Shown here piece by piece: positions 25,292 to 49,788 of a stretch of 64,000 nt of DNA (position 1 is the stretch's first letter; each line of letters opens with the position of its first letter). The notes beneath the pieces were generated by a model, which saw only the letters and a list, made by a program, of their open reading frames with translations, made no database searches and was not told the origin of the DNA. Where the stretch lies: IMG/VR virus record IMGVR_UViG_3300008108_000118; one strand, 5' to 3'. The position numbers were made by a program, and so were the translations under genes. The stretch comes from a virus.

Positions 25292-25717
25292 ATGGAAGAA
25301 AAAAAATATGTCGGAGATTTAATTCTTTTAAGAGGAGTACCAGGTAGTGGTAAATCTACATTAGGTAAAACAATTTTAAGATGTTTAGCTTCAGATGATC
25401 CTGACGTTATTTCTGCGGATGATTTTTTTCTTGACGAAAAGGGTAATTATATTTTTGATTCCACAAAATTAAAAGAGGCACATGCACAATCACAACAAAG
25501 ATGTGCAACAAAAATGAAAAATGAATTTTCAAGAATTGTTGTCGCGAATACCTTTACACAGAAATGGGAAATGGACGCATATTACGAAATGGCGGAAAGA
25601 TACAATTACAGGGTTTTTAGTGTGATTGTTGAAAATAGACACGGAAATTTAAATATTCACGATGTTCCCGAAGAAAAAGTTGAACAAATGAAAAATAGAT
25701 TTGATGTTTCTCTTTAA
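25292..25717 (+). CDS. P-loop polynucleotide kinase-like protein (kinase domain only)
   Basis: Walker A LLRGVPGSGKST and a downstream ISADDFF region. Lies directly upstream of, and overlapping, an RNA ligase gene. Confidence 0.55.
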   Translation: MEEKKYVGDLILLRGVPGSGKSTLGKTILRCLASDDPDVISADDFFLDEKGNYIFDSTKLKEAHAQSQQRCATKMKNEFSRIVVANTFTQKWEMDAYYEMAERYNYRVFSVIVENRHGNLNIHDVPEEKVEQMKNRFDVSL

Positions 25718-29958: not shown

Positions 29959-30047
29959 GCCCCGGTGGTGGAACAGGTAGACACGCAGGACTTAAAATCC
30001 TGTGGACCGAAACGTCCGTGCGGGTTCGATTCCCGCCTGGGGCACCA
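29959..30047 (+). tRNA. tRNA-Leu (anticodon TAA), type II, CCA encoded
   Basis: GCCCCGG...acceptor, anticodon loop CTTAAAA, variable arm GGACCGAAACGTCC, T-arm GCGGGTTCGATTCCCGC, ends GGGGCACCA. Confidence 0.85.
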
Positions 30048-30084
30048 ATACTATCGTTCTTTGACATATAAGGAGAAACAAATT

Positions 30085-30450
30085 ATGGAAATACTTTTCT
30101 TTATTTTAGGAATTACTTCCGTGGTGGTTATTGCGACCGCAATAGTTGCTGTGGTAAGTATTGTTAAGGTAACAAAGTTACAAACAAAAGTTAAAGATGG
30201 TTTTGATGGTGTTTATCATTCAATTGATAATACACATACTTCCATCGATAACACAAAAAGAGATACTCACGATAACATCGGAAGATTAAATGAAGAAGTT
30301 AATCGTAGAGTTGATAACCTCGAAAGAGAAACCTTCTCACAGTTAGATTCTCGATTAGATAAGTTGGAAACGAAGTTAAAAACTTACGTTCACACTAATG
30401 CAACCATGATGAAACTTGCATTAGATACACATAAAGCAACATCAAAATAA
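30085..30450 (+). CDS. small membrane-anchored coiled-coil protein (121 aa)
   Basis: AGGAG SD 9 nt upstream. N-terminal TM helix (ILFFILGITSVVVIATAIVAVVSIV). Track ORF 29926.. overlaps tRNA-Leu and was trimmed. Confidence 0.55.
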   Translation: MEILFFILGITSVVVIATAIVAVVSIVKVTKLQTKVKDGFDGVYHSIDNTHTSIDNTKRDTHDNIGRLNEEVNRRVDNLERETFSQLDSRLDKLETKLKTYVHTNATMMKLALDTHKATSK

Positions 30451-30606
30451 AATAAAAGTCAAAAGAACGATAGTATTAAGGTTGAACGGGGAATGAAGAT
30501 TAAGACACCTGTTGGTGGTTGGTGATTATCTTCGGAGTTGGAACCAACATAGTAATGCCGTTCGTAAAAGAGGATGTCCACTCGACCATCTTCCTCTTTC
30601 CTTCTT

Positions 30607-30677
30607 GGTCTCATAGTTTAAGGGAAAAACGGTAGCCTTCTAAGCTTCTGATCCTAGTTCGAGTCTAGGTGAGACTA
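30607..30677 (+). tRNA. tRNA-Arg (anticodon TCT)
   Basis: GGTCTCA/TGAGACT acceptor (G1-U72), D-stem GTTT/AAAC, anticodon loop CTTCTAA, perfect T-arm CCTAG-TTCGAGT-CTAGG. Embedded in a GC-richer ORF-free region. Confidence 0.7.
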
Positions 30678-30898
30678 CAAAGTTCCTGTAGGCCGCGGGA
30701 TCGTAGTTCCTCTATTCCACTGACAAAAGTCAAGAAAAGAGCCAGATCGTAAGCTGGATGGGTTGACAACTTTCCCACTGACTCGGAAAAAAGTTGTAAA
30801 TTTTAAGCGGGTCCTCGCTTCCCACGGTTTAATAGTACAAGGATAATGAAGGGAATAATACGACCCCTAAGACCTGCTTTTATTAAAAAAAATAAAAT

Positions 30899-31330
30899 AT
30901 GAATTACAAATTAAAAGAAATGCCCGAAAAAGTATATTGGGCGGAAACAAAACAATTTACAGTTGAAAATGAAAATGGTGAAACATTTGATATTCGAATT
31001 GGTGAAAGTTCAAAATTTACTGAATATTGGATTTGGAAAGATCCGGGTGGATGGGAAGAAATTGATGATGATGATCTTATGGAGTATATAAATGAACAAT
31101 TTGCCGATGATGAATGGGAATTTGAACTTTCTGCACAAAAAGAAAGAGAAGAAAAAATGGATAAAATTATTGATGAATATATTAAAGAAAATGGTGATCA
31201 AATAAAAATAGATGAATTAGTGTCTAAAATAAGTAGAGAAAATCTATATCCACGAAATATCACATTTTACGAAGAGTTTTATCACAACTATCATTATGTC
31301 AATAAAAAAATAAAACAACTTAATAAATAA
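30899..31330 (+). CDS. hypothetical acidic protein, 143 aa
   Basis: ORF with AT-rich upstream region. No family recognised. Confidence 0.5.
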   Translation: MNYKLKEMPEKVYWAETKQFTVENENGETFDIRIGESSKFTEYWIWKDPGGWEEIDDDDLMEYINEQFADDEWEFELSAQKEREEKMDKIIDEYIKENGDQIKIDELVSKISRENLYPRNITFYEEFYHNYHYVNKKIKQLNK

Positions 31331-31332
31331 AA

Positions 31333-31536
31333 ATGGAAAATTATAGAAAAGTATTAATTTTTGTGATGTGTTTTTTGGTCACATTTATCGGTGGCATTAT
31401 TGTTACAGAATTATCCGCCTATCTTTTAACTTTACCAAATACAATTGCAAATATTTTTGGTTATATCATTTTAATCACTACCTTTGTATTGATCCTCTTA
31501 TTAGGACATAAATTAGTAAAATCTTTAAACAAATAA
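31333..31536 (+). CDS. small membrane protein (67 aa, 2 TM)
   Basis: Hydrophobic segments FVMCFLVTFIGGIIVT and IFGYIILITTFVLILLL. Confidence 0.45.
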   Translation: MENYRKVLIFVMCFLVTFIGGIIVTELSAYLLTLPNTIANIFGYIILITTFVLILLLGHKLVKSLNK

Positions 31537-31547
31537 AAAAAACAGTT

Positions 31548-32492
31548 ATGATTGGAATTATCACATTTACCTTATCGGTAGTAGTATTAGGAATTTTATT
31601 CGGAGTATTTAACTTCAAAAATTATTTGTCAGAACCTGACAAGTACAATAATACAAAAATAAAAGCGAGTGCAGTTATTAAAGCGGTTGTTGTGTTTATT
31701 GTATCTATTATCTTGGCAATCATCAATCCAATTTCAGTTGAACGAATTGATGTTGGACACGTAGGATTAAAAATCAACAACACCGGAGATGAAAAAGGTA
31801 TCAGTAAGACCACATATGTAACGGGTTGGGTGTTTTATAATAGTTGGTTATCTCGTATTAAGGAGTATCCCGTGACCCAACAACATGTAGATTACGAAGA
31901 AACCGCAATCATCACAAAAGGTGGGTTCCAAGCGGTAATTAAACCAAGTTTTAACTGGTCTGTGAATCCATCCAATGCCGCTGATATGTATCAAAATCTC
32001 AGACAAGATGTTGATCAGATTAAAGAAACTTGGTTGAAGAACGCTATTATAGGTGCCGTGAATGATGTTGCCAACTTATATAGTGTCGATTCAATTTTTA
32101 ATCATCGAGCCGAATTTGAATCTGACATTGTAAAAGAATGTAATTTAAGGGTTAGTAAATGGTTTAACGTATCTCAATTAAGAACAAATATTGTTCCTCC
32201 AAAAGAGATCACGGAAGCCATCAACCAAAAGACCAAGGCGGTTCAAGAAGCTCAAGCGGCTATCCAACAAAAGATCGTGGCCGAAGCTCAGGCTTTAACA
32301 CAGATCGCAAAGGCAAAAGGTGATAGTGCTCAAGCGGTGATTGCAGCATCCGGTAGGGCTGAAGCGGTGAGAAAAGAACAACAATACTTAACACCGATGT
32401 ATATTGAGTATATTAGAGCACAAAGATGGGATGGTAAGTATCCACAAACAATGCTCGGTTCTGGTGGAAATGTGTTGTTAAATTTGAAATAG
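31548..32492 (+). CDS. SPFH/band-7 (stomatin/prohibitin/HflKC-like) membrane protein
   Basis: N-terminal TM followed by IDVGHVGLKIN ... VTGWVFYNSW ... and a coiled-coil Ala/Gln-rich C-region. Typical SPFH architecture. Confidence 0.65.
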   Translation: MIGIITFTLSVVVLGILFGVFNFKNYLSEPDKYNNTKIKASAVIKAVVVFIVSIILAIINPISVERIDVGHVGLKINNTGDEKGISKTTYVTGWVFYNSWLSRIKEYPVTQQHVDYEETAIITKGGFQAVIKPSFNWSVNPSNAADMYQNLRQDVDQIKETWLKNAIIGAVNDVANLYSVDSIFNHRAEFESDIVKECNLRVSKWFNVSQLRTNIVPPKEITEAINQKTKAVQEAQAAIQQKIVAEAQALTQIAKAKGDSAQAVIAASGRAEAVRKEQQYLTPMYIEYIRAQRWDGKYPQTMLGSGGNVLLNLK

Positions 32493-32499
32493 AATATTA

Positions 32500-32704
32500 A
32501 GTCAGGTGGCGGAATAGAATGTAATGATGATTTGGACGATTAGTCGACACGTAATCACGTGACTATTTCTATCCTTATCAGATGTTGAATCATCGAATCT
32601 TACATTCTTTGGTAGACGATAATCACGGAAACCTAATGAGGTAGAGAACGCAAGTGAGAGGTATCTGCGGATACCGTACGGGTTCGAATCCTGTCCTGAC
32701 TACA
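32500..32704 (+). ncRNA. tRNA-like RNA with ~130-nt internal insertion (perfect 7-bp acceptor stem plus canonical T-arm)
   Basis: 5' AGTCAGG pairs with 3' CCTGACT (then A, CA). T-arm ACGGG-TTCGAAT-CCTGT. Internal 9-bp inverted repeat AGAATGTAA/TTACATTCT encloses the insertion. No ORF. Confidence 0.45.
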
Positions 32705-32716
32705 ATTTTGATATTT

Positions 32717-33277
32717 ATGGGAATGTTAAGAAAAATAAAATATTGGTTTGAATACGAAGGAAGATATCTTCACAAAGATTTTATTAAAGGTGTAAAAAAT
32801 CTGTGGAAATGGTTTCCAACTATTTGGAAAGATAGAGAACATGACTATCATTTTATTTTAGTTCTTCTTGAAAAGAAACTTAATTTTCAATCAAAATATA
32901 TTGGTTATAAAAATAGACATTCAGAAGCAACTAGAGATTCTGAACGTATGATGACATGTGTTCGTCTTATACAAAAAATAAAAGAAGATTACTATAATAC
33001 GGAATATGTGGATTATCAAAAAAGTGAATTTCATTTTGATCCCATTCCCGATAGACCTACCCACAAACAACTTCGTATTGAGGAAATTTCAGATAATTTT
33101 GATGATTATTTTAAAATATATCCTCGTATCTATAAAAAAGTTTTTAATGAACTTGATGTGGATCAAAGAAACTCAAAAAGAATTATTGCTATTCGTATGA
33201 GTTGGGAAAATCACAACAGAGCAAAAAAACTTTTATTTAAAATGATGGAAAATCATATCGAGTCTTGGTGGGATTGA
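32717..33277 (+). CDS. hypothetical protein, 186 aa (Trp/Tyr-rich)
   Basis: Track ORF 32654.. overlaps the tRNA-like element. Start moved to the in-frame ATG at 32717. Confidence 0.5.
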   Translation: MGMLRKIKYWFEYEGRYLHKDFIKGVKNLWKWFPTIWKDREHDYHFILVLLEKKLNFQSKYIGYKNRHSEATRDSERMMTCVRLIQKIKEDYYNTEYVDYQKSEFHFDPIPDRPTHKQLRIEEISDNFDDYFKIYPRIYKKVFNELDVDQRNSKRIIAIRMSWENHNRAKKLLFKMMENHIESWWD

Positions 33278-33314
33278 TTTTTTTTCTTATATTATATAAA
33301 ATAAAACATAAATT

Positions 33315-33500
33315 ATGAAATGTATCAAATCAATTAAGTCAACTAAAAACACCGAAATCGGGGTAATTAAAAGAATTGACGACAAAGAAGCAGAATCAAT
33401 GGTTAAATCAGGTTATTGGAAATATGTTCCTAAATCTGAATTTAAAATTAAAAAAGTAAAAGAAGATGAAACATTAAGGGAACAATATCCCGCCAATTAA
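33315..33500 (+). CDS. small hypothetical protein, 61 aa
   Basis: Short basic ORF. Weak. Confidence 0.3.
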   Translation: MKCIKSIKSTKNTEIGVIKRIDDKEAESMVKSGYWKYVPKSEFKIKKVKEDETLREQYPAN

Positions 33501-33697
33501 AAAAAATAATAAAAAAGTTTCGAAATAATTTTTTTATTATTTCAAATTTACATATATTTGCATATATTTATAAGACAATGACAAACTTGTTTAACATACT
33601 AACGATAGAGAATACACCAAATAATGGTGGTGGGTATGATGTGCCAGTATACAAACAAGTTCGGAGTTAAAAAAATTTATTAAAACAAAATAAACAT

Positions 33698-33730
33698 AAA
33701 CCCGAACACAAAAAGTTCGGGTTTTTTTTG
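33698..33730 (+). terminator. intrinsic terminator (ACCCGAAC-ACAAAAA-GTTCGGGT plus T8) 20 nt upstream of tRNA array 1
   Basis: 8-bp stem followed by a T-run. Confidence 0.6.
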
Positions 33731-33751
33731 TTAATAGATCTTTGAAATAAT

Positions 33752-33825
33752 CGGGATGTAGTTCAGTCCGGTAGAATGCTTGGTTTGGGACCAAGATGTC
33801 GTAGGTTCGAATCCTGCCATCCCGA
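33752..33825 (+). tRNA. tRNA-Pro (TGG)
   Basis: Acceptor CGGGATG/CATCCCG, anticodon loop TTTGGGA, T-arm GTAGGTTCGAATCCTGC. Confidence 0.8.
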
Positions 33826-33831
33826 CATAAT

Positions 33832-33903
33832 GTCTTCTTAGCTCAACGGTAGAGCAATTGGCTGTTAACCAATAGGTTTTAGGTTCGAATCCTAAAGAGG
33901 ACG
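33832..33903 (+). tRNA. tRNA-Asn (GTT)
   Basis: Acceptor GTCTTCT/AGAGGAC, anticodon loop CTGTTAA, T-loop TTCGAAT. Confidence 0.8.
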
Positions 33904-33908
33904 CAATC

Positions 33909-33990
33909 GCCCCGATGGTGGAATTGGTAGTCACGGCAGACTTAGGATCTGTTGCCTTATGGTGTGAGAGTTCGAGTCTCTCTTGGGGTA
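33909..33990 (+). tRNA. tRNA-Leu (TAG), type II
   Basis: Anticodon loop CTTAGGA, long variable arm, T-arm GAGAG-TTCGAGT-CTCTC. Confidence 0.75.
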
Positions 33991-33999
33991 CATTAAATT

Positions 34000-34072
34000 G
34001 GCCGATTAGTTCAGCAGGTTAGAATGCGTGACTTGTAATCATGAGACGACAGTTCGATTCTGTCATTGGCCT
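34000..34072 (+). tRNA. tRNA-Thr (TGT)
   Basis: Acceptor GGCCGAT/ATTGGCC, anticodon loop CTTGTAA, T-loop TTCGATT. Confidence 0.8.
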
Positions 34073-34077
34073 CATAA

Positions 34078-34151
34078 GCGGATTTCGCCTAGTTGGCATG
34101 GCACCACACTTCCACTGTGGAATAGGGTCGGTTCGAGACCGTCAATCCGCT
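34078..34151 (+). tRNA. tRNA-Gly (TCC)
   Basis: Acceptor GCGGATT/AATCCGC, anticodon stem CCACA/TGTGG with loop CTTCCAC. Confidence 0.8.
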
Positions 34152-34197
34152 CAGAATTTTTTTTATTCAAATATATTTTGTATGTTTGAATTTGTAA

Positions 34198-34280
34198 GGT
34201 GTAGTTGAGCAATTGGTTGGCTCGCCGGACTGTAAATCCGGTCCCTTCGGGGCTTGTAGGTTCGAGTCCTACCTACACCA
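34198..34280 (+). tRNA. tRNA-Tyr (GTA), type II
   Basis: Acceptor GGTGTAG/CTACACC, anticodon loop CTGTAAA, variable arm TCCCTTCGGGGCT. Confidence 0.8.
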
Positions 34281-34286
34281 CAAATT

Positions 34287-34358
34287 GCCGCTGTCGTCTA
34301 ACGGTTAGGACGCGTCCCTTTCACGGACAAAATGCGAGTTCGATTCTCGTCGGTGGTA
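34287..34358 (+). tRNA. tRNA-Glu (TTC)
   Basis: D-region TCGTCTAACGGTTAGGACG is typical of tRNA-Glu. Anticodon loop CTTTCAC. G-U-rich acceptor stem. Confidence 0.7.
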
Positions 34359-34363
34359 CGATT

Positions 34364-34435
34364 GGTCTCATAGTTAATCGGCTATAATATTGCCCTGTCA
34401 CGGCAAAGTGCCGGGTTCGATTCCCGGTGGGACCG
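34364..34435 (+). tRNA. tRNA-Asp (GTC)
   Basis: Acceptor GGTCTCA/TGGGACC, anticodon stem TTGCC/GGCAA with loop CTGTCAC. Confidence 0.8.
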
Positions 34436-34591
34436 CAAACTTCAGGAGTAATTAACCTGAAGATGGAAGGTTCGAAACTTTCGATTGGCTATGGTGTAAT
34501 GGGCACACTGGTCCCGTGATTGGCTCGGTTATCGTCGAGTTTCAGTCGGGACCGGGGGATTCAGGTTCAATTCCTGATTGGTCAGCAAAAT
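34436..34591 (+). other. tRNA-like remnants/unresolved structured RNA (T-arm-like GAAGG-TTCGAAA-CTTTC; hairpin CTTCAGG-N9-CCTGAAG; second T-arm TCAGG-TTCAATT-CCTGA; GGTCCCG/CGGGACC inverted repeat)
   Basis: Contains two canonical-looking T-arms, but no acceptor stem can be paired for either. Could be tRNA pseudogenes or a noncanonical/intron-bearing tRNA. Confidence 0.3.
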
Positions 34592-34665
34592 GGACCCTTA
34601 GCTCAGTAGGTTAGAGCAAATGACTCATAATCATTAGGTGCACGGTTCGAGCCCGTGAGGGTCCA
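34592..34665 (+). tRNA. tRNA-Met (CAT) (elongator Met or lysidine-Ile type)
   Basis: Acceptor GGACCCT/AGGGTCC, anticodon loop CTCATAA, T-arm CACGGTTCGAGCCCGTG. Confidence 0.8.
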
Positions 34666-34670
34666 CATTT

Positions 34671-34742
34671 AGTCCTTTAGCTTAGTGGGAAAGCGGTTGT
34701 CTTACATGCAACATAGAGTGTGTTCGATTCACACAGGGACTA
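34671..34742 (+). tRNA. tRNA-Val (TAC)
   Basis: Acceptor AGTCCTT/AGGGACT, anticodon stem GTTGT/GCAAC with loop CTTACAT. Confidence 0.75.
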
Positions 34743-34850
34743 CCCCCGATATGTATGTGTAAGCAAGAAGCATATCATCAGTTGGGATCTTACAGTCCAC
34801 GAACTGGGGTCCGGTGGGAACCGGGATGAGAGTACCCGAACCTCTCAAAC
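34743..34850 (+). other. unresolved ~108-nt spacer with hairpins (GATATG...CATATC; CCGGTGGGAACCGG), possible degenerate tRNA
   Basis: No canonical cloverleaf could be built on either strand. Confidence 0.25.
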
Positions 34851-34922
34851 GCAGATATAGCACAATGGTTAGTGTTCGGCCTTGCCAAGGCTGAGATGCC
34901 AGTTCGAATCTGACTATCTGCT
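34851..34922 (+). tRNA. tRNA-Gly (GCC)
   Basis: Acceptor GCAGATA/TATCTGC, anticodon region CCTTGCCAAGG, T-arm GCCAGTTCGAATCTGAC. Confidence 0.8.
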
Positions 34923-34923
34923 C

Positions 34924-35078
34924 AAATTGTACTGTGGTGAAATTGGCAGACACCCCCACTCGTCTCGTGGGCGTCGACAACGAAATAGGTAAATGGATAA
35001 GGGTTGACCACAAGCTAGCTAGCATATTTGTCCTTTACCGAATCGCGACATAGACGGTTCGAATCCTCTCGGTACAGC
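34924..35078 (+). other. ~150-nt tRNA-like element (acceptor-like TGTACTG/CGGTACA pairing, anticodon-like CCCAC-TCGTCTC-GTGGG, TTCGAAT T-loop with poorly paired stem); possible intron-containing or pseudo tRNA
   Basis: The termini pair like an acceptor stem, but the body is too long and the T-stem is mismatched. Confidence 0.3.
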
Positions 35079-35106
35079 ATATATTTTTGACAAATAAAAA
35101 TAGTTT

Positions 35107-35346
35107 ATGACGATCTTAATCGGCATCAATGAATTAGAAGAAGAATTTCAAATACCGTGGAAGATGGGATTAGTTAATCATTTGGTCATTGATTACGCAG
35201 ACAACGCAATCTATGGTACATTTGAGAAAAAAGAAGTAATTATTTTTAGGTTCAAAAAATATGGTTGGGTTTGTGATAATAGATACAATTTATACACACT
35301 ATCAAGTGGTGAGGCAGGTATCATGATTAACATGAATTCAACATAA
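35107..35346 (+). CDS. hypothetical protein, 79 aa
   Basis: Short ORF between the tRNA arrays. Confidence 0.4.
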   Translation: MTILIGINELEEEFQIPWKMGLVNHLVIDYADNAIYGTFEKKEVIIFRFKKYGWVCDNRYNLYTLSSGEAGIMINMNST

Positions 35347-35370
35347 AATATTTATTAATAACAACATGTT

Positions 35371-35832
35371 ATGAGAAAATTTAAAACATTATTCGGAATT
35401 GAGATTGATAATCTTGCTGAATATATTAAAGAATATATTTCAACAAGAGAAAATGTGGAGATATTAGTTGGCGCCGATTCTCAAAATTATAGTAATAGAA
35501 AAACTATATATGGAGTTGTTATTGCCTTATACACAAAAGGTAAAGGTGCACATGTTTTGTGTTCAAGAGATACTGTTCCAATTGAGAGAAACACATCAAC
35601 CAGATTACTTACTGAAGTTTGGAAATCAATTGAGACCGCAGAATTTTTAAAAGAAAATGGTTTACCAAAACCATTATGGATTGATATTGACTTAAATCCT
35701 GATCCGAAATTTAAATCAAATACCGTATTAAGACAAGCGGTTGGTCTTGTTGAAGGTATGGGTTATCAAGTTAGATATAAACAATTAGGTGCTATGGTAA
35801 CATACGCCGCAAATCACTTAGTTAGAAATTAA
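35371..35832 (+). CDS. RNase H-fold DUF458/YkuK-like protein, putative
   Basis: ILVGADSQ ... IYGVVIALYTKGKGAHVL resembles the IGTDSQ..GG.A.FVT.IV....GKGA core of the YkuK family. Recalled from memory only. Confidence 0.4.
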   Translation: MRKFKTLFGIEIDNLAEYIKEYISTRENVEILVGADSQNYSNRKTIYGVVIALYTKGKGAHVLCSRDTVPIERNTSTRLLTEVWKSIETAEFLKENGLPKPLWIDIDLNPDPKFKSNTVLRQAVGLVEGMGYQVRYKQLGAMVTYAANHLVRN

Positions 35833-35844
35833 ATTATACTTTTC

Positions 35845-35875
35845 TTTGTTTTTACAATATTTATTATTATCTTTG
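35845..35875 (+). promoter_or_regulatory. sigmaA-type promoter TTTG-N19-TATCTTTG
   Basis: -33 at 35845-48 and -7 at 35868-75. Drives a ~170-nt unit that ends at the terminator at 36027-36062. Confidence 0.5.
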
Positions 35876-35904
35876 TAAAACAAAAGATTAAAAAAATAAA
35901 TTCG

Positions 35905-36006
35905 ATGAAACAGTTCAAACATATTATGTCGTTTATTAGTTGTTCAAAATGGGCAAGTCAGCGTCATATCCGTATGTCCCGATCTGTTTGTATGAATTTG
36001 TGTTAA
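35905..36006 (+). CDS. possible small Cys-rich peptide (33 aa, MKQFKHIMSFISCSKWASQRHIRMSRSVCMNLC) or sRNA
   Basis: Only ORF within the promoter-to-terminator unit 35876-36062. Confidence 0.2.
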   Translation: MKQFKHIMSFISCSKWASQRHIRMSRSVCMNLC

Positions 36007-36026
36007 AATATTTTAATAAGTAATTC

Positions 36027-36062
36027 AAAAAAACCTCGGGACAAAATCTCGAGGTTTTTTGT
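36027..36062 (+). terminator. intrinsic terminator (ACCTCG-N11-CGAGGT plus T6)
   Basis: A-tract, hairpin, T-tract. Confidence 0.65.
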
Positions 36063-36067
36063 TTTAT

Positions 36068-36140
36068 GGGCTGTCATGTTCCAAGGCTGGCGAAGGACCC
36101 TTGCAAGGTCTTTGGGAGATTTCGATTATCTCACGGTCCA
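36068..36140 (+). tRNA. putative tRNA-Ala (TGC), weak D-arm
   Basis: Acceptor GGGCTGT/ACGGTCC (two G-U pairs), anticodon stem GGACC/GGTCT with loop CTTGCAA, perfect T-arm GAGAT-TTCGATT-ATCTC. D-stem pairs poorly. Confidence 0.4.
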
Positions 36141-36146
36141 CATAAT

Positions 36147-36220
36147 GTTCGGGTAGATCAATTGGTGAGATCATTCGCCTGATACGCGAAAGGTTGTAGG
36201 TTCGAGTCCTACTCCGAACA
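36147..36220 (+). tRNA. tRNA-Ile (GAT)
   Basis: Anticodon stem TTCGC/GCGAA with loop CTGATAC. T-arm GTAGGTTCGAGTCCTAC. Confidence 0.8.
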
Positions 36221-36225
36221 CGAAT

Positions 36226-36298
36226 GGTACACAAGCTAACTTAGTAGAAGCATTGGACTGAAAATCCAAGGGACTTGGAGCGTAACCAAGGTGTACCA
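36226..36298 (+). tRNA. tRNA-Phe (GAA)-like with noncanonical T-loop (AGCGTAA)
   Basis: Perfect acceptor GGTACAC/GTGTACC. Anticodon stem TTGGA/TCCAA with loop CTGAAAA. T-stem CTTGG/CCAAG, but the loop lacks the TTCRANY signature. Confidence 0.5.
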
Positions 36299-36307
36299 CA
36301 AACATAT

Positions 36308-36381
36308 TCCCTCGTAACTCAATTGGCTAGAGTACCACACTTTTAATGTGGGAGTTTCGAGTTCGAATCTCGACGGGGGAA
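36308..36381 (+). tRNA. tRNA-Lys (TTT)
   Basis: U1-A72 start. D-stem ACTC/GAGT. Anticodon stem CCACA/TGTGG with loop CTTTTAA. T-arm TCGAG-TTCGAAT-CTCGA. Confidence 0.75.
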
Positions 36382-36385
36382 CAAT

Positions 36386-36456
36386 GGTCGGATGGCCGAG
36401 TGGATTAGGTGGAGGTCTGCAAAACCTCTTACGTCAGTTCGATTCTGACTCCGACC
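36386..36456 (+). tRNA. tRNA-Cys (GCA)
   Basis: Acceptor GGTCGGA/TCCGACC. Anticodon stem GAGGT/ACCTC with loop CTGCAAA. T-arm GTCAG-TTCGATT-CTGAC. Confidence 0.8.
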
Positions 36457-36463
36457 TCAAATA

Positions 36464-36536
36464 CACGGGTGTGGTGAAATTGGTTATCATTTCGGTCTCC
36501 AAAACCGACGTTTCAGATTCGAATTCTGACATCCGT
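36464..36536 (+). tRNA. tRNA-Trp (CCA)
   Basis: Acceptor ACGGGTG/CATCCGT. Anticodon stem TCGGT/ACCGA with loop CTCCAAA. T-arm TCAGA-TTCGAAT-TCTGA. Confidence 0.8.
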
Positions 36537-36540
36537 GCAA

Positions 36541-36613
36541 TGGTTCTATGGTGTAATGGATTAGCACACGAAGCTACGGACTTCGGAGTTTGGGTTCGAG
36601 TCCTAATAGAACC
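36541..36613 (+). tRNA. tRNA-Arg (ACG)
   Basis: Acceptor GGTTCTA/TAGAACC. Anticodon stem CGAAG/CTTCG with loop CTACGGA. Confidence 0.8.
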
Positions 36614-36618
36614 ACATA

Positions 36619-36691
36619 TTGTTCCGTGATGTAATGGTTAGCATACAAGAATTTGACTCTTGTAGTATAGGTTCGAGTCCTATCGGAACAT
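36619..36691 (+). tRNA. tRNA-Gln (TTG)
   Basis: U1-A72 acceptor TGTTCCG/CGGAACA. Anticodon stem CAAGA/TCTTG with loop ATTTGAC. Confidence 0.75.
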
Positions 36692-36697
36692 CATAAA

Positions 36698-36780
36698 GGA
36701 GAGGTCGTATAGTGGTTTAGTACAGTAGTCTTGAAAACTACCGAGTTTAGGCTCCGTGGGTTCGAATCCCACCCTCTCCG
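36698..36780 (+). tRNA. tRNA-Ser (TGA), type II
   Basis: Acceptor GGAGAGG/CCTCTCC. Anticodon loop CTTGAAA. Long variable arm. Confidence 0.8.
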
Positions 36781-36785
36781 CATAT

Positions 36786-36864
36786 GGTGGCCTGAGATGG
36801 GTTGGTTACATCGTCAGATTGTGGCTCTGAAGAACACGGGTTCGACTCCCGTAGGTCACACCAA
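36786..36864 (+). tRNA. tRNA-His (GTG) with extra 5' G(-1), CCA encoded
   Basis: G-1 precedes acceptor GTGGCCT/AGGTCAC. Anticodon stem TCAGA/TCTGA with loop TTGTGGC. Confidence 0.75.
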
Positions 36865-36867
36865 AAG

Positions 36868-36955
36868 GAGAGTAAACTACGACGGTGAGTAGACATGCCT
36901 GCTAAGCATTGTGTTCGTTAATTCGGATGAGGTTCGATCCCTCTACTCTCCGCCA
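36868..36955 (+). tRNA. tRNA-Ser (GCT), type II, CCA encoded
   Basis: Acceptor GGAGAGT/ACTCTCC. Anticodon loop CTGCTAA. Long variable arm. T-arm GAGG-TTCGATC-CCTC. Confidence 0.75.
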
Positions 36956-36958
36956 AAT

Positions 36959-37031
36959 GCCGTGGGTTAGTGGAATACGACTATCTCTCATAAGGATGGA
37001 GAACACAGTTCGAACCTGTGCTACGGTACCA
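36959..37031 (+). tRNA. tRNA-Met/Ile2 (CAT) with short D-loop, CCA encoded
   Basis: T-arm CACAG-TTCGAAC-CTGTG. Anticodon stem TATCT/GGATG (2 G-U) with loop CTCATAA. G-U-containing acceptor stem. Confidence 0.55.
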
Positions 37032-37051
37032 AAAAAAAGTTTTAAAAAGAT

Positions 37052-37082
37052 TTTGTATTTTAAAAAAGTATTTATATCTTTG
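37052..37082 (+). promoter_or_regulatory. sigmaA-type promoter TTTG-N19-TATCTTTG upstream of the initiator-like tRNA
   Basis: -33 at 37052-55 and -7 at 37075-82, 18 nt before the tRNA 5' end. Confidence 0.5.
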
Positions 37083-37100
37083 TAAAAGTTCTTTAAACAT

Positions 37101-37172
37101 CGTGGCGTGGAGAAGTGGTATCTCACTAGGCTCATAACCTAGGGACCGTTGGTTCGAATCCAACCGCCGCAA
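37101..37172 (+). tRNA. initiator-like tRNA-fMet (CAT) with unpaired C1-A72
   Basis: The C1-A72 mismatch is the bacterial initiator hallmark. D-stem GAGA/TCTC. Anticodon stem CTAGG/CCTAG with loop CTCATAA. T-arm GTTGG-TTCGAAT-CCAAC. Confidence 0.65.
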
Positions 37173-37192
37173 CAAAAAAGTTTTAAAAAGAT

Positions 37193-37329: not shown

Positions 37330-38214
37330 ATAAAGTTCTTTGAAAATATTGGGCGGTCTATAGTCCATAAAATAAACCATGAAAGTGGTATAAAGTGGAA
37401 TACCTTGGTTTTGGTATTCTGCGGCTTGGGTAACCGAGCTCGAGTAGACAAACGAGATATCGTCTGACCTTTAGTACTGAGGGTAACACTGTAGGGAAAG
37501 TGGTTGGGCGATCAAGCGATGTGGGTCGTTTGGTTGAGGTGGGAACACCAATAAGAATAACTCGTAGAATTATTGCAAGAAATGTTGTTATCCGACTTCA
37601 TAATTGCGTTTTTCAATATTATGGTTGTCTTAAAACCGAAAGGTATGTTAGTGTACAGGTGGTGCTGTTATTAACCTTAACCTTAGCCTACCAAGGCATG
37701 AGTTATGAAGATGAGCAAAAATATGGAGGTGGGGACATCTCAGAGGGTAGTTTAGTATTTAGCCGTTCAAAAGATGGCTGAGCTGGTGACGAACCACTAC
37801 CTTCACAATCCACAAACCAATAACTTGCATCCATTTAATTGCAAAATTAATAAATCAAGGAAAAGTGTTCGTCAGTTGTGGATGACAGGTCACTACATAG
37901 TCATGAGTTGTTCATGGCCATGAAGGGTCCCAAGCCCAACATGATTTTCACCAAAGTTCTCTAATCTCGCAAGGATTAATTGGGGTGGCAACCTCGAAGA
38001 GTGATGAGTAATGAGAGAGTGATTCACAACTTAAGGATTGGTTAATCTAATTGACCGTGACTGATTATTACTACTCAAAAGGTAGTGGATAAGGGAAGAA
38101 TCAATAATGTCCCAAAGATAATCACCCGAACGTGTAATCTCAGCGTTTTATTTTCCTGATTTTTATAAAATCATGGTGGTGGAGTAATAAAAAGATTTCA
38201 TGCCGCAAGGCCCC
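37330..38214 (+). ncRNA. candidate large structured noncoding RNA (~0.9 kb, GC-richer than flanks, no credible ORF), bounded by the tandem promoters and the terminator at 38215-38244
   Basis: No ORF over 93 aa in any frame inside a genome that is otherwise about 90% coding. Base composition shifts to GC-rich. Many local inverted repeats. Defined promoter and terminator. Adjacent to tRNA arrays. Confidence 0.4.
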
Positions 38215-39068: not shown

Positions 39069-39269
39069 ATGAAAAATATAATTGATTTTTTAAAAAACCT
39101 ATTAACAAAAAAATCTGAAGAAGTTATTTCAGAAATAAAACAAAAGGTTGTATCTGAAATAAAGGGTGAACCTGAGAAAGTAGAAGAACCTGTTAAGGTT
39201 GAGGAACCAAAAGAAGAAATCGTCGAAGAAAAACCCAAAAAAAGAGGTAGAAAGAAAAAGGTAGATTAA
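39069..39269 (+). CDS. small Lys/Glu-rich hypothetical protein
   Basis: 66 aa. Low complexity. Followed by a terminator. Confidence 0.35.
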   Translation: MKNIIDFLKNLLTKKSEEVISEIKQKVVSEIKGEPEKVEEPVKVEEPKEEIVEEKPKKRGRKKKVD

Positions 39270-39291: not shown

Positions 39292-39320
39292 GGGTTAAAT
39301 TTTTATTTAACCCTTTTTTT
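39292..39320 (+). terminator. intrinsic terminator (GGGTTAAAT-TTTT-ATTTAACCC plus T7)
   Basis: 9-bp stem followed by a T-run. Confidence 0.6.
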
Positions 39321-39350
39321 GTCTATATTTGTGAAAGTTCTTTAAAATAT

Positions 39351-39743
39351 GGGGGTGTCCAGGTATTGATTGGCGTTTATATGGTAAATGGGCACGTAGT
39401 CAGATGTCATCTATGACTTAAATCTACGGTGGTAAAAATCAAACGGCAACGTTTACAACAACATGGAAATTGCAGGTATCCTTGCAACTTCTAAAGTAGC
39501 TGCTTAATAAGTACCTACTGTCGGGTCGGTTAGGACATATAACCCAGGAACAGAAGTCCGTTATACGGGTCACAGGTCAGAGCTCGTTTAAAATAATTCT
39601 GAGACCAAGTTGTTTGTAGGTAGGTTTCTCACATATATCAAACCTAATATTTTGGAACATTGAGAACCAATGTTATACTAAACGTGTAGTCCATCTATTG
39701 TATGGCGAACAAGACAAGGGTTCGATTCCCTTCACCTCCACCA
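39351..39743 (+). ncRNA. ssrA: tmRNA-like (SsrA-like) RNA, ~393 nt
   Basis: 5' GGGGGTG pairs with 3' CACCTCC-ACCA, giving a 7-bp acceptor stem with G3-U70. T-arm AAGGG-TTCGATT-CCCTT. Possible internal tag frame ...AGILATSKVAA followed by TAATAA. Preceded by TATATTTG and followed by a terminator. Confidence 0.55.
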
Positions 39744-39747
39744 AAAA

Positions 39748-39778
39748 TTAAACCCATCGAATTCGATGGGTTTTTTAT
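39748..39778 (+). terminator. intrinsic terminator (AACCCATCGAATTCGATGGGTT plus T6) after the tmRNA-like gene
   Basis: Perfect palindromic stem followed by a T-run. Confidence 0.7.
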
Positions 39779-39916: not shown

Positions 39917-40867
39917 TTAATAGTTTTGTGCTATTGTTTTCAAAAAATTTAATCCAAATTGACTATTCATATCCATTAAACCACCACCCTGTTGTTGTAG
40001 ATTCTCTTGTCCATTAATCCCTAATCTATCAATTTGGACCAAATCTTCTTGACTTGTTGATTGATTAACAACTTGTGAAAATCTTGGATCGTTTGCCAAT
40101 TTTTCTCTAAATTGTTCATCTTCATTGAATTTCTTTTCAAACGCATCAAAACTCGGTAATCCAAACATGGCTAAAACACCATTAGCGATTATAAATTGTT
40201 TTACCATATTTCTTCTACCACGTCTTGCAGGCATAACTACGTTCCACCAATTAGATAACCAAGTACTTGGTGCTTTTCCTGTTTTTGCAATATATTCTGC
40301 CAATTTTTCTCCTTGAAAGAAATTTTTAAAACCTGTACTAAATTTTCCACCAGCAGAGATCGTAGATCCAATCTGTTTACCTAATCCAACAGGTCTTTGT
40401 AATATTTTACCAATCGCGGTTGTGTGTTCCGCCATTGCATGTCTTAATCCACCAGCGGCTTTGGTACCAATAATTGGTACTTTTTCTAAACTTCTAATTG
40501 TGTTGGTAACAGGTGCGGAATTTATGTATTTACCTAACTCAACATATTTTTTTGCGAACGTTGGATTTTTAGCCGCAAAGGCAACTAAGTTATCTGTATT
40601 TTTCAACGCACCTCTCGCAATAGGACTTTTAAGTAGTCTAATTATTGGTTTAGCGAAAAAATCACCCACTGTCGGTATTAGTGCAATTAACATTAAACCA
40701 GCGTAAAGATATTCCTTTTTGTATATGTAACGAATAATCAATATAATGTCAGCAACCTCACCTATCACAGGTATAAAACCTGCGATCATTAATGCATTTT
40801 CTAAACCATCTTCTTTTAGTAGTTGTTTAGATTCTAAGATTTCCTTTTTTGTATAAATTCTAGACAT
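39917..40867 (-). CDS. hypothetical membrane protein, 316 aa
   Basis: Multiple hydrophobic helices in the N-half. Part of a minus-strand block of probable virion proteins. Confidence 0.5.
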   Translation of the reverse strand: MSRIYTKKEILESKQLLKEDGLENALMIAGFIPVIGEVADIILIIRYIYKKEYLYAGLMLIALIPTVGDFFAKPIIRLLKSPIARGALKNTDNLVAFAAKNPTFAKKYVELGKYINSAPVTNTIRSLEKVPIIGTKAAGGLRHAMAEHTTAIGKILQRPVGLGKQIGSTISAGGKFSTGFKNFFQGEKLAEYIAKTGKAPSTWLSNWWNVVMPARRGRRNMVKQFIIANGVLAMFGLPSFDAFEKKFNEDEQFREKLANDPRFSQVVNQSTSQEDLVQIDRLGINGQENLQQQGGGLMDMNSQFGLNFLKTIAQNY

Positions 40868-46817: not shown

Positions 46818-47918
46818 CTATAAATATGTCTCTATTTCTGTTTTAACTTTTTTTAACGCGGAGGCGATTACTTGGTGCATATCATAATACTTATATTCCG
46901 CCAACCTACCACCAAAAATGACATTATTTTCCATTTTTGTTAAATCTTGGTACTTGTTAAATATATTTTGATTTATTAAATCATTTATTGGGTAATATGG
47001 TTCTTCATTTTTATTCCATTCAATTGGATATTCTTTTGTTATTATTGTTTTAGAAGAAATATCATTATTAAAATGTTTGTGTTCAATAATTCTCGTAAAA
47101 GGTATTTCAATGTCTGTAAAATTTATAACTGAATGACCTTGATAATTTTCTTTGTCGAGTATTTCAGTTTCAAATCTCAATGGTCGATACTCTAAATCAC
47201 CATAACAATAATTATAAAATTTGTCTACCGGTCCTGTATAAATTATTTTTCTAGATAATGAATTGAAATATTCTCTATTTTCAAAATAGTCAACATTTTT
47301 TCGTACTTCAATATTTTCTAATAATTTTTCAAATAATTCTGTATAACCGTTTTTTGGAATTCCTTGGTATGTGTCAAAAAAATAATTATTATCGTATGTG
47401 AATCTTACAGGTAATCTTTTTATGATAAAAGGTGGTAATTCTTTTGGGTTTTTCATCCATTGTTTTTCAGTGTAACCCTTAATTAATTTATCATATACAT
47501 CTCTACCTACTAATGATAATGCTTGTTCTTCTAAATTATTGGGTACACCTCCATATCTTTGACTTTCTATTATTTTTATCGCTTCTTCCGGATTATTGAC
47601 CCCCCACAGTTTATTAAACGTAAACATATTGAAGGGTAAAGAGTATAGTTGATCTTTATGTGACGCCAAAACATGATGTCTATAATTGTTAAACTCAACA
47701 AATTTATTTACATAATCCCAAACTTCTTTATCTGAAGTATGAAATATATGTGCACCATACTTATGTACATTAATTTCTAAATTTTTTTCAGTATAACAAT
47801 TACCACCAATATGATCTCTTTTTTCTATAACCAATACTTTTTTTCCGACATTGGTTAATTCTCTGGCAAAAATAGATCCAAAGAGACCCGATCCAACTAT
47901 TAAATAATCATACATCAT
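46818..47918 (-). CDS. glf: UDP-galactopyranose mutase
   Basis: FAD-binding N-terminus DYLIVGSGLFGSIFA...KKVLVIEKRDHIGGNCYT and HKYGAHIFHT are characteristic of Glf. Confidence 0.9.
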   Translation of the reverse strand: MMYDYLIVGSGLFGSIFARELTNVGKKVLVIEKRDHIGGNCYTEKNLEINVHKYGAHIFHTSDKEVWDYVNKFVEFNNYRHHVLASHKDQLYSLPFNMFTFNKLWGVNNPEEAIKIIESQRYGGVPNNLEEQALSLVGRDVYDKLIKGYTEKQWMKNPKELPPFIIKRLPVRFTYDNNYFFDTYQGIPKNGYTELFEKLLENIEVRKNVDYFENREYFNSLSRKIIYTGPVDKFYNYCYGDLEYRPLRFETEILDKENYQGHSVINFTDIEIPFTRIIEHKHFNNDISSKTIITKEYPIEWNKNEEPYYPINDLINQNIFNKYQDLTKMENNVIFGGRLAEYKYYDMHQVIASALKKVKTEIETYL

Positions 47919-48552
47919 TAATTCTTTTTACCGGCCTGTTGTATGCATTTACGAATATATTATCATAACCAAGAAATCCACCAATATTATCACTAACACT
48001 ATCTATTTGAGAAATTAACAATGGATATCCACCATATTTAATAAAATTATTTTGATAAATCCACGCGTCTATTGGGACATCAACTTCTGGGTCGTATTTT
48101 AACATTTTTTCATATGCCTGTTTATTGACAGCATATGCGTGAACACAATAACATCCATGGATATACATTAAATTATCATCAATTAAGTTTATTGGGTTAT
48201 CAAAAATATTTGCACTAAAATAATAAACATCCCAATTATCTATTTTCGAAAGACTATCTAATGATTTTTCTATAAGTTCCTCCGCACCTTCTTTGAAAAA
48301 AACATCATCCTCAAAAATTAAAATATTTTCTAAATCATTATTGTAGGCATATTCAATAATATTTCTGTGTGATTTACCGCTGGCAATTACACAATTTTGA
48401 GGTGTTTTAATATCCGCCTTTATTGCTGAATATCTTTTTACAAATTTATCTAAATCAACTCTCGATAGTTCTCGTTTCATGTGATCTTGTCTATCAACTC
48501 TATCGTCTAAATTTATATAAAAAGCGTCTTTAAAAAATTCTTGTATTTTCAT
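47908..48552 (-). CDS. glycosyltransferase family 25-like (LPS/LOS beta-1,4-galactosyltransferase family)
   Basis: N-terminal FYINLDDRVDRQDHMKRELSRV matches the GT25 signature (YVINL..R.DR...M..EL). Confidence 0.6.
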   Translation of the reverse strand: MKIQEFFKDAFYINLDDRVDRQDHMKRELSRVDLDKFVKRYSAIKADIKTPQNCVIASGKSHRNIIEYAYNNDLENILIFEDDVFFKEGAEELIEKSLDSLSKIDNWDVYYFSANIFDNPINLIDDNLMYIHGCYCVHAYAVNKQAYEKMLKYDPEVDVPIDAWIYQNNFIKYGGYPLLISQIDSVSDNIGGFLGYDNIFVNAYNRPVKRINDV

Positions 48553-48558
48553 TTTTTT

Positions 48559-49788
48559 TTAAATTTTAAAATATGATGGTCTTTTCCATTCTAAATCTTC
48601 AGAGTATGGCCAAATTAATAGTTGTGTTGGTATTTGCCTATTTTTGGATCTATAAAATTTAAATGTACGAGAATTTATTTTACCATCGATTATATCTTTA
48701 TTTTCGTTATAAGTTAAATCTTCTCTATGTATTGCAATACCCCCCTGATCTAACACAATCATCGCCCAAAATCTAACATTATTTATTTTTTCAATTTTAT
48801 CATAATCCCAAGAAATTGTGTCATTGAAATAAACTTGTTCATTGTCCCAACCTTCTTCAGAATTTGAACATGGAGGTTCGATACCCTTCTCAGTATCTTT
48901 ATGTACAATACATTTAACAAAATCGATTCCAGAATAATCGGTATACTCTTGTAATGTTCTTTCTTTACCTAAACCATACATACCTAAACCAAACAAATCA
49001 TTTCTACCAAGTAAACAATCTAATCTATCATGTGCAACTTTATTTAAATTCCCCCAATTATTATGGTCACCCCAATGTTTAGGGTTATCTAACCTTTGAT
49101 AAAAATGATGTACAATTGTTCTATGAGAATTATATATATTATAACCGTGTGTGAAATACCTAATCGCCATGGCCGCTTCCTCACCCGAAAAATAAAAATC
49201 AGGATCGTATGGTACTTCTCTGTTTATTTGACCAGGACCAAAGATAAAACCTGCAGATATATAAACACCTTTGACAGGAAAATTCTTAGATTGCCAATCT
49301 TCCATATTCATTGGTCTACTCATCGGATACTTATGATCGAACCTATAAACATTACATATTTGTGGTACGTTATACCATTTACTTTCATCCATTTCTGGAT
49401 TATAGTTTGGGGGGTATCCAGTAATGATTGCTTTTTCGTCATTTAGTGACTCCCAAATGTTTATCAACTTTTCATCCCAATTTTCAACAAATCTCATATG
49501 TGAATCTATCTGAAGTGAAAATTTCTCATCTTTCCACAACATTTGTGTTATATTTCTGGCCCAACACGCTCCTTTTGATTCTTTGTAATCAAAATCAATT
49601 ATTTCTATATTTTCATTATTTTTTATTTCATCTAAATTATCCCATATATCATCTTTTGAATGTTGCCAACATATAACAAACCTCAAATTCTCGGGAAATT
49701 TAGATCTACTAATCGCATGTTTTATTGTTGGCAATAACTCTTTATCTCTATACGATGCGATTTGAACAAAAATTTTATTATTACTCAT
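48559..49788 (-). CDS. GT-A fold glycosyltransferase (GlcNAc-transferase-like), putative
   Basis: N-terminal IFVQIASYRDKELLPTIKHAI ... LRFVICWQ and a DxH-like QIDSHMRF resemble the GlcNAc-transferase family. Confidence 0.5.
   Translation of the reverse strand: MSNNKIFVQIASYRDKELLPTIKHAISRSKFPENLRFVICWQHSKDDIWDNLDEIKNNENIEIIDFDYKESKGACWARNITQMLWKDEKFSLQIDSHMRFVENWDEKLINIWESLNDEKAIITGYPPNYNPEMDESKWYNVPQICNVYRFDHKYPMSRPMNMEDWQSKNFPVKGVYISAGFIFGPGQINREVPYDPDFYFSGEEAAMAIRYFTHGYNIYNSHRTIVHHFYQRLDNPKHWGDHNNWGNLNKVAHDRLDCLLGRNDLFGLGMYGLGKERTLQEYTDYSGIDFVKCIVHKDTEKGIEPPCSNSEEGWDNEQVYFNDTISWDYDKIEKINNVRFWAMIVLDQGGIAIHREDLTYNENKDIIDGKINSRTFKFYRSKNRQIPTQLLIWPYSEDLEWKRPSYFKI

Follow-up and report, generated by a model that had tools for sequence, protein, structure and literature searches.

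A probably functional one-piece tmRNA gene in a distant T4-like bacteriophage and its large freshwater relatives

Downstream of a metallophosphoesterase gene, the viral record IMGVR_UViG_3300008108_000118 carries an element that resembles a tmRNA. The locus raises the question of whether this element is a working gene of the phage, a passive remnant of a host ssrA gene, or an RNA with another role. An initial annotation of the 64,000-nt stretch of DNA analyzed here (the window) had proposed a phage tmRNA-like gene with its own promoter element and terminator. We present here a computational analysis of the element, its relatives, and its genomic setting. Judged by sequence evidence, it is a genuine phage tmRNA, and probably a functional one.

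The 393-nt extent first proposed for the element was borne out. The Rfam tmRNA model RF00023 gave a strong match from end to end (model positions 1-374 of 374) at 86.8 bits (E 2.7e-32), above the gathering score of 47, to the following gene:

39351-39743, plus strand: standard one-piece tmRNA gene (Rfam RF00023) of 393 nt, with the 3′ CCA encoded

The length is typical for a one-piece tmRNA. The order of the parts in the window copy is the standard one and is not circularly permuted; with the permuted-tmRNA model RF04321, the score was 16.5 bits (gathering score, 47) and only the T-arm and terminator were covered. A permissive Rfam rescan of the locus yielded no riboswitch and no other family above threshold. 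The single-sequence fold of the tmRNA is unexceptional (z = -1.85), as is expected of a pseudoknotted RNA.

ARAGORN, which had been suggested as a check, found no tmRNA in the window, nor in the excised region at relaxed thresholds. The same program was run on 28 clade homologues with introns taken out and CCA added; it called 15 and missed 13, and it missed the window copy. In 14 of the 15 called homologues, it placed the start at the same resume codon and tag frame as described below. Mutational probing showed that the window copy is called once its resume codon is changed from GGC to GCA, and changes to the D-loop or the tag end did not restore detection. Because a change of one codon restores the call, the negative result is a limitation of the tool, traced to its resume-codon heuristic.

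In IMG/VR, 331 relatives of the flanking phosphoesterase are found, on contigs of up to 333 kb; the assembly collection also has contigs of 0.2-1 Mb with this phosphoesterase. An nhmmer search with the window RNA found a homologue downstream of it, on the same strand, at 34 loci. In six intact relatives, Rfam independently recognizes the element as a tmRNA (66-83 bits). These homologues allow the structure of the window RNA, listed here, to be compared across the clade.

39351-39357, plus strand: acceptor stem, 5′ strand GGGGGUG, pairing with 39733-39739 (CACCUCC) and including G3·U70
39374-39397, plus strand: helix 2, 5′ strand (tmRNA nt 24-47), pairing with 39682-39707 (nt 332-357)
39398-39434, plus strand: pseudoknot PK1, with P3 at 39398-39402/39414-39418 and P4 at 39405-39411/39428-39434
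39495-39519, plus strand: helix 5 hairpin, with stop codons in and beside the loop
39523-39559, plus strand: pseudoknot PK2, with P6 GGGU/ACCC and P7 GGAC/GUCC
39565-39606, plus strand: proposed PK3, whose pairs form in the window sequence
39617-39674, plus strand: proposed PK4 and an adjacent hairpin, whose pairs form in the window sequence
39716-39732, plus strand: T-arm AAGGG/CCCUU with loop UUCGAUU, supported by covariation
39740 and 39741-39743, plus strand: discriminator A and CCA, giving the encoded 3′ end ACCA

The acceptor stem with its G3·U70 pair, the ACCA end, and the canonical T-arm had all been read from the letters in the initial annotation, and each is present. All seven acceptor pairs form in 32 of 32 full-length homologues, and G3·U70 is invariant among them. 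Positions 5-7 of the stem occur as four compensatory variants (GUG/CAC, AUG/CAU, UCG/CGG, and CAG/CUG). The CCA is encoded in about half of the copies, that of the window included, and is absent from the others, among them all six intron-bearing copies.

Covariation beyond the acceptor stem was tested with 88 pairs that were defined on the window and projected onto an alignment of 26 sequences (444 columns). These pairs span helix 2, PK1, helix 5, PK2, PK3, PK4, the adjacent hairpin, and the T-arm; for the acceptor stem, direct indexing was used instead, because MAFFT had shifted the first alignment column. Pairing was found in 80.1% of alignment cells, compared with 36-43% in controls slid by 1-3 columns, a comparison in which a structure derived from the window sequence favors the unslid register. 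Counts of doubly changed pairs are the more independent measure, and there were 38 of these versus 11-22 in the slid controls. The observed pairing and covariation score was reached by none of 500 shuffles.

The pseudoknots, whose presence had been left for later checking, are supported by covariation for PK1 and PK2. PK1 lies just 5′ of the resume codon. Its P3 stem is paired in 100% of cells, with an A-U pair replaced by G-C in eight sequences and by U-A in one; its P4 stem is 91% paired, with compensatory U-A, G·U, and A-U forms. Both stems of PK2 are 100% paired, and P7 changes from G-C to A-U or U-A and from A-U to G-C. Helix 2, which joins the tRNA-like domain to the pseudoknot ring, has 85% and 100% of its cells paired and 13 pairs changed on both sides. 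The T-arm is 100% paired across the 26 sequences, with four of its five pairs doubly changed. In helix 5, the outer stem is 75% paired with compensatory changes, and the inner stem, which varies between subgroups and is poorly aligned, is 24% paired. All pairs of PK3 and PK4 form in the window, and clade-wide they are 48-85% paired because a second subgroup has nonhomologous, unalignable sequence there; PK3 and PK4 thus appear to be supported in the window-like subgroup only. A nested helix CGUAG/CUACG of the minimum-free-energy fold was considered and rejected: no compensation accompanies the changes in its 3′ strand, and PK1 is the topology that fits. The D-loop-like segment of the window tmRNA reads GGUAUUGAU; E. 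coli tmRNA has a UUCGAC-type sequence at this segment.

The mRNA-like part of the element was examined in the same homologues. An internal short frame ending in LATSKVAA before TAATAA had been noticed as a possible tag, and it proved to be present, with a resume codon and with coding-type constraint in the relatives.

39445-39510, plus strand: tag frame, with GGC resume codon at 39445-39447, 20 codons, and TAA TAA at 39505-39510

The 20 codons of the window frame encode GNVYNNMEIAGILATSKVAA. All 28 distinct homologues keep this frame open, over 20-23 codons, and the two other frames carry stops. The glycine resume codon is nearly invariant (GGC, with GGA in two copies), and the base at -4 of it is A in every copy. 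Over the first 16 codons in the main group, variable sites by codon position number 8/3/11. Synonymous changes make up 37% of pairwise codon differences in the tag frame, compared with 22% and 8% in the shifted frames. From this codon-position bias and synonymous excess, it follows that the tag frame evolves like a coding sequence. The ends of the tags differ across the clade (VAA, VAVA, VVA, VGA, EVA, and IAA, with variants including ...SNVAVA, ...NVVA, ...VVVGA, and ...STVEVA), and only the final alanine is invariant, which leaves uncertain what happens to tagged proteins. A distant pair of homologues encodes the tag GEKSTFSFEDAMSLVGAELAIAA.

The tmRNA is accompanied by its own transcription signals. 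The promoter box and the perfect palindromic terminator proposed on first reading were both recovered, together with a second terminator upstream.

39292-39313, plus strand: upstream intrinsic terminator with a 9-bp stem and T-run, from a terminator scan
39324-39331, plus strand: promoter box TATATTTG, fitting TAnnTTTG, its end 19 nt before G1
39332-39350, plus strand: spacer/leader of 19 nt, conserved across relatives and containing the conserved AGTTCTTTAAAATAT
39750-39773, both strands: bidirectional intrinsic terminator, its perfectly palindromic 10-bp stem preceded by an A-run and followed by a T-run

The unit thus runs from terminator to TAnnTTTG box, 19-nt leader, tmRNA, and bidirectional terminator. 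The upstream terminator closes the unit of the phosphoesterase and a 66-aa open reading frame (ORF; 39069-39269), which leaves the tmRNA isolated as its own transcription unit. The downstream hairpin was reported on both strands and ends both the tmRNA on the plus strand and the convergent ORF 39917-40867 on the minus strand; the convergent gene block, which faces the tmRNA, lies beyond it. Most homologues also have a 3′ hairpin and T-run, with differing sequences.

TAnnTTTG is what we take to be the consensus of the "-7" promoter element of the Bacteroidota primary sigma factor. Of 27 distinct upstream regions (window counted), 23 have it 9-21 nt 5′ of G1, 18 of these at 18-21 nt. The box is kept in relatives whose remaining flank is unrelated; of the four exceptions, three have a version with one mismatch. 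Across the whole window the motif is not enriched (115 matches versus 113 expected from shuffled sequence), so only the conservation of its position in the relatives lends it significance. Transcription would start a few bases 3′ of the box, and a leader of about 12 nt would then be removed by RNase P. A sigma-70-like candidate, TTGTCT-18-TAAAAT at 39319-39348, was rejected; its -10 element ends 2 nt before G1, which would place the start inside the mature RNA.

The window is phage DNA: PHROGs identify a major head protein of T4 type, a portal, and a large terminase. The description of the genome as T4-like stands for these structural and packaging genes, and the relation itself is only distant: among cultured or deposited phages, the closest matches (an uncultured 484-kb phage, Microcystis phage Mel-JY01, and Flavobacterium phage "immuto") reach only 28-43% identity. 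The phage is classed, by sequence, as distantly T4-like. The GC content is about 27-42% per 2-kb window and about 27-35% outside an island of RNA genes on the plus strand, of which the tmRNA is the last gene. The genes of interest upstream of the tmRNA are as follows.

11581-11772, plus strand: bS21 gene, 63 aa (PF01165, E 2.9e-13; TIGR00030)
29959-37173, plus strand: tRNA genes of the RNA island (ARAGORN, 23 tRNAs in the window)
37743-38146, plus strand: GOLLD RNA, 338 bits
38275-39027, plus strand: metallophosphoesterase, flanking the tmRNA upstream

The bS21 gene named in the initial annotation is real by its Pfam match and sits antisense within the minus-strand block of major capsid protein, portal, and large terminase genes. 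The accompanying count of about 27 tRNAs was too high, as ARAGORN finds 23. This setting may reflect the substantial translational takeover by the phage that was suggested in that annotation.

The host was approached through a 29-nt clade-specific signature of the tmRNA, which was found in 2 of 185,579 species-representative genomes. Both are Flavobacteriaceae metagenome-assembled genomes (MAGs), one of a Flavobacterium sp. and one of a Flavobacteriaceae bacterium. Both signature contigs are phage-like; one has the order GOLLD-phosphoesterase-tmRNA, and the other is 248 kb long, with the tmRNA adjoining a tRNA array. The evidence on the host is indirect: this co-binning, the promoter box, and the host predicted for bS21 phages in PMC9723584 all suggest Flavobacteriaceae or other Bacteroidota, and the host is probably a member of Flavobacteriaceae.

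SmpB was sought as a partner of the tmRNA. None was found in the 64-kb window by Pfam on 20 ORFs of 120-215 aa or by tblastn with E. coli and phage SmpB (best E > 1). The E. coli probe was validated only by its matches to phage ORFs that NCBIfam confirmed as SmpB. With no SmpB in the window, this copy would need SmpB from the host or from another part of the phage genome of about 300 kb. Relatives of one sub-lineage do encode SmpB (NF003843, 179.8 bits versus a cutoff of 130). In one of them, L020, SmpB starts about 60 nt after the tmRNA, and 13 of 80 viral SmpB loci have a tmRNA of the clade type within 3 kb.

Six relatives contain a 192- to 197-nt group I intron in the T-loop of the tmRNA (RF00028, 62-79 bits); the window copy has none. 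The intron is inserted after T-loop nt 1, and its removal restores a UUCGAnU loop. It shows a GGGU/GCCC P1 pairing, a U at -1 paired to an internal G, and a terminal G. A T-loop restored by splicing matters only if the RNA is used, and these introns are therefore counted in favor of a functional tmRNA. By the present count, their position corresponds to subsite 2, which the tmRNA database records only from Anaerolineae and one member of Myxococcota (PMC11915505). The six relatives share with the intron-form tmRNA genes described there a group I intron in the TΨC-loop. Phage intron forms are not mentioned in that paper's text as covered here, and a limited literature search found no report of an intron-form tmRNA in a phage.

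A functional phage tmRNA at this locus would be expected to act in the following way. The RNA would be transcribed from the Bacteroidota-type promoter, trimmed by RNase P, and charged with alanine by the host alanyl-tRNA synthetase through G3·U70. It would then be brought to stalled ribosomes by SmpB, which could be the product of the host or of a phage gene beyond the window. Alanine and then GNVYNNMEIAGILATSKVAA would be added to the nascent chain, and the ribosome would be released at the tandem stops. The likely benefit is that ribosomes would be kept available for phage proteins when truncated mRNAs arise, whether from infection or from RNA-cleaving defenses of the host. In this the tmRNA may act alongside the phage tRNAs, bS21, and RNA-repair genes.

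What a working tmRNA is for could also lie in the tag. By orthogonal re-tagging, it would swap the host tag for a phage-specific one of 20-23 residues, so that, for example, tagged proteins are directed to a phage ClpC-like unfoldase docking on ClpP or escape host adaptor-mediated degradation. The phage does encode a Clp-type ATPase:

22847-24862: Clp/Hsp100 ATPase with two rings, a UVR motif, and no N-domain (Pfam and NCBIfam)

A PHROG label of "ATP-dependent protease" had suggested a Lon-type protease for this ORF, which was rejected on the Pfam and NCBIfam evidence for a Clp/Hsp100 ATPase. The protein is conserved, with 281 relatives and 76-91% identity among the best 80 of the 281, and in at least seven cases the contig that carries it also carries the tmRNA. 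It has a VGF tripeptide in a D2 loop, a motif that may have the meaning it has in B. subtilis ClpC. The ATPase lies 14.5 kb from the tmRNA and is far more widespread than it, and the C termini of the tags vary within the clade. We therefore consider re-tagging unlikely as the purpose of the gene, and a link between the ATPase and the tag is speculation. An extended form, likewise unlikely, would be a partly orthogonal quality-control module. The ClpC-like unfoldase at 22847-24862 would read the phage-specific tag, which at 20-23 residues is unlike the 9-residue Bacteroides tag, and nascent chains of the host that infection leaves stranded would thereby be recycled under phage control; in sister lineages, a phage SmpB and a self-splicing tmRNA intron would add to the module.

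The lack of an SmpB gene in the window would also suit an inhibitory decoy, an RNA that competes for SmpB or ribosomes without productive tagging. A precedent is given in PMC11915505, which cites work in which a tmRNA of mycobacteriophage DS6A, consisting of the tRNA-like domain only, inhibits endogenous tmRNA when expressed in E. coli. A pure decoy, however, needs none of the mRNA-like domain, PK1, resume context, and constrained tag frame that are retained here, and we regard a decoy as very improbable.

The distribution of the gene bears on whether it belongs to the phage at all. Three independent JGI metagenome assemblies contain the exact 455-nt region, which rules out an assembly artifact. 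Of 80 phosphoesterase loci, 31 have a tmRNA in this position by a clade profile; these are all of the loci with at least 55% protein identity, except three with too little flank, plus two distant ones. The position is held where the flanking protein has diverged to 55% identity. The gene at 39351-39743 is full length, with the whole model covered, and is not the 3′ fragment of a host ssrA that the initial annotation had weighed against a full gene. No integrase lies beside it, as no Pfam or PHROG integrase match was obtained among the immediate neighbors (the metallophosphoesterase and ORFs). A functionless passenger, recently captured as a host ssrA or left as an attP/integration remnant, would be in keeping with the frequent use of tmRNA genes as integration sites and with the ssrA fragments in prophages (PMC9004378; PMC11915505), but it is the least probable reading and effectively refuted by this full length and lack of an adjacent integrase domain, by a phage clade reported without integrases (PMC9723584), by the position kept despite flank divergence, the covariation, and the conserved tag frame, and by a clade signature confined, among the genomes searched, to two phage-like contigs binned with Flavobacteriaceae. 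On sequence evidence, this locus very probably contains a functional tmRNA (ssrA) gene of the standard one-piece form that belongs to the phage.

Such a gene shares much with bacterial SsrA (RF00023): the tRNA-Ala-like domain, G3·U70, the T-arm, helix 2, PK1, stops in helix 5, a downstream PK2 with the proposed PK3 and PK4, and an Ala-Ala tag end. It differs in being phage encoded, in a tag of 20 residues compared with the commonest length of 10 (PMC11915505), and in the failure of ARAGORN on the window copy, which is due to the resume-codon context. The Bacteroides SsrA tag is GETNYALAA (bioRxiv 10.1101/2025.03.18.644028). It has in common with the window tag a glycine resume codon and a C-terminal Ala-Ala, whereas the window tag has 20 residues and an unrelated middle, and endings vary in its clade.

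Phage tmRNAs are established as a kind. ARAGORN detects them in about 2.3% of cultured phage genomes (PMC9004378), huge phages carry tmRNA together with SmpB (PMC7162821), and phage G carries a tmRNA (PMC12484599). The clade described here resembles the huge phages in having a large genome rich in translation genes and, in some relatives, SmpB. Unlike the tmRNAs of cultured phages, the window tmRNA had no match by blastn or megablast among 50,697 cultured phage records, and it belongs to a freshwater clade with bS21 architecture; when the 20-kb neighborhood was compared with cultured phage records, only a tRNA-Ser matched. The OM43 phage Melnitz and pelagimyophages have a two-piece permuted tmRNA and a glutamine riboswitch (PMC9004378). 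Shared with that type are a complete phage tmRNA next to a promoter, a T4-like aquatic phage, and the same functional hypotheses; the window gene, in contrast, is one-piece, scores 16.5 bits with RF04321, and has no riboswitch.

The closest setting, likened by description, is that of five clades of 293- to 331-kb freshwater bS21 phages with predicted Bacteroidetes hosts (PMC9723584). A bS21 gene antisense within a block of capsid, portal, prohead protease, and terminase genes has been described there. The window resembles these phages in its antisense bS21 gene, low GC content, and tRNAs, with relatives on contigs of up to 333 kb, and its phage is a candidate member of the group. That study used tRNAscan-SE only and does not mention tmRNA or GOLLD (PMC9723584). 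The phage tmRNA surveys relied on ARAGORN (PMC7162821; PMC9004378), which misses about half of the present family, so the prevalence of phage tmRNA is probably underestimated. What is new is a sequence family with no match in cultured phages, its presence in a probable bS21-phage lineage from which no tmRNA had been reported, a long tag unlike GETNYALAA, and the partial blindness of ARAGORN to it. The tmRNA family is well conserved and distinct in sequence, and the large freshwater phages that carry it form an abundant clade. For phage trans-translation, the family offers natural comparisons between copies that differ in whether SmpB is adjacent, in whether the T-loop has an intron, and in the tag.

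The tmRNA gene is interrupted by a group I intron of 192 to 197 nt in six related phage contigs (RF00028, 62 to 79 bits).

Intron-split tmRNA genes
L001:7086-7667
L029:1425-2012
L030:7448-8033
L012:6011-6601
L026:6776-7371
L007:6462-7071

The intron lies 3′ of T-loop nucleotide 1, and its excision in silico restores UUCGAnU. Introns of this length leave no room for a homing endonuclease gene. L001, the window's closest relative, carries the intron, and the window's own tmRNA does not; an encoded CCA is missing from all six intron-bearing copies.

Some relatives encode bona fide SmpB, the protein partner of tmRNA (NCBIfam NF003843, 179.8 bits); none was found within the 64-kb window. The SmpB coding sequence of L020 begins about 60 nt 3′ of the tmRNA.

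SmpB genes in related contigs
L020:9129-9575
L008:3440-3985
L006:199-690
L026:1-300
L171-L178

The window contains 23 tRNA genes (29959-37173) serving 19 amino acids, with alanine the sole gap; of the RNAs encoded there, only the tmRNA is predicted to accept alanine. Two Rfam tRNA matches in relatives, L020:4934-5059 and L006:5259-5381, are abnormally long (123 to 126 nt) and may be intron-containing tRNA genes.

A GOLLD RNA lies 1.2 kb 5′ of the tmRNA and immediately follows a tRNA-Met gene (37101-37173), toward which it probably extends further at its 5′ side.

Other features of the window
37743-38146, +, GOLLD RNA (RF02032, 338 bits, full model)
22847-24862, +, two-ring Clp/Hsp100 AAA+ ATPase, 671 aa
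25292-25717, +, AAA_33 kinase-like protein
25717-26787, +, T4 Rnl1-family RNA ligase
26702-27208, +, cREC_REC "cyclic-phosphate processing receiver" domain protein
11581-11772, +, ribosomal protein bS21 (PF01165, E 2.9e-13)
46818-49788, -, cell-surface sugar gene cluster

The order GOLLD, phosphoesterase, tmRNA is repeated in L001, L007, L009, L014, L025, L030, and L089. Phage GOLLD RNAs adjoining tRNA islands are already known; a limited literature search found no description of GOLLD-tmRNA linkage. The phage-clade tmRNA also occurs, alongside GOLLD or a tRNA array, on contigs in two GTDB species-representative Flavobacteriaceae MAGs, which are probably phage contigs co-binned with their host.

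MAG contigs carrying the phage-clade tmRNA
L089, NZ_JBJTND010000053.1, 7.4 kb
L090, CBFHJJ010000001.1, 248 kb

The Clp/Hsp100 ATPase lacks the N-domain, has a UVR motif as well as a VGF tripeptide (residues 534-536), and scores below the equivalog cutoffs of both ClpA and ClpB. It has 281 viral-contig relatives, with 76 to 91% identity among the best 80, and PHROGs names the ORF "ATP-dependent protease." The kinase-like, ligase, and cREC_REC genes form a possible three-gene RNA-repair set (25292-27208), which, if real, would suggest defense against host systems that cut tRNA or mRNA.

The bS21 gene is antisense within the capsid, portal, and terminase block, the same architecture as in freshwater bS21 phages (PMC9723584). 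The sugar cluster encodes UDP-galactopyranose mutase (GLF) together with two glycosyltransferases, one of family 25 and the other of GlcNAc type, and is consistent with the surface-remodeling genes noted in bS21 phages.
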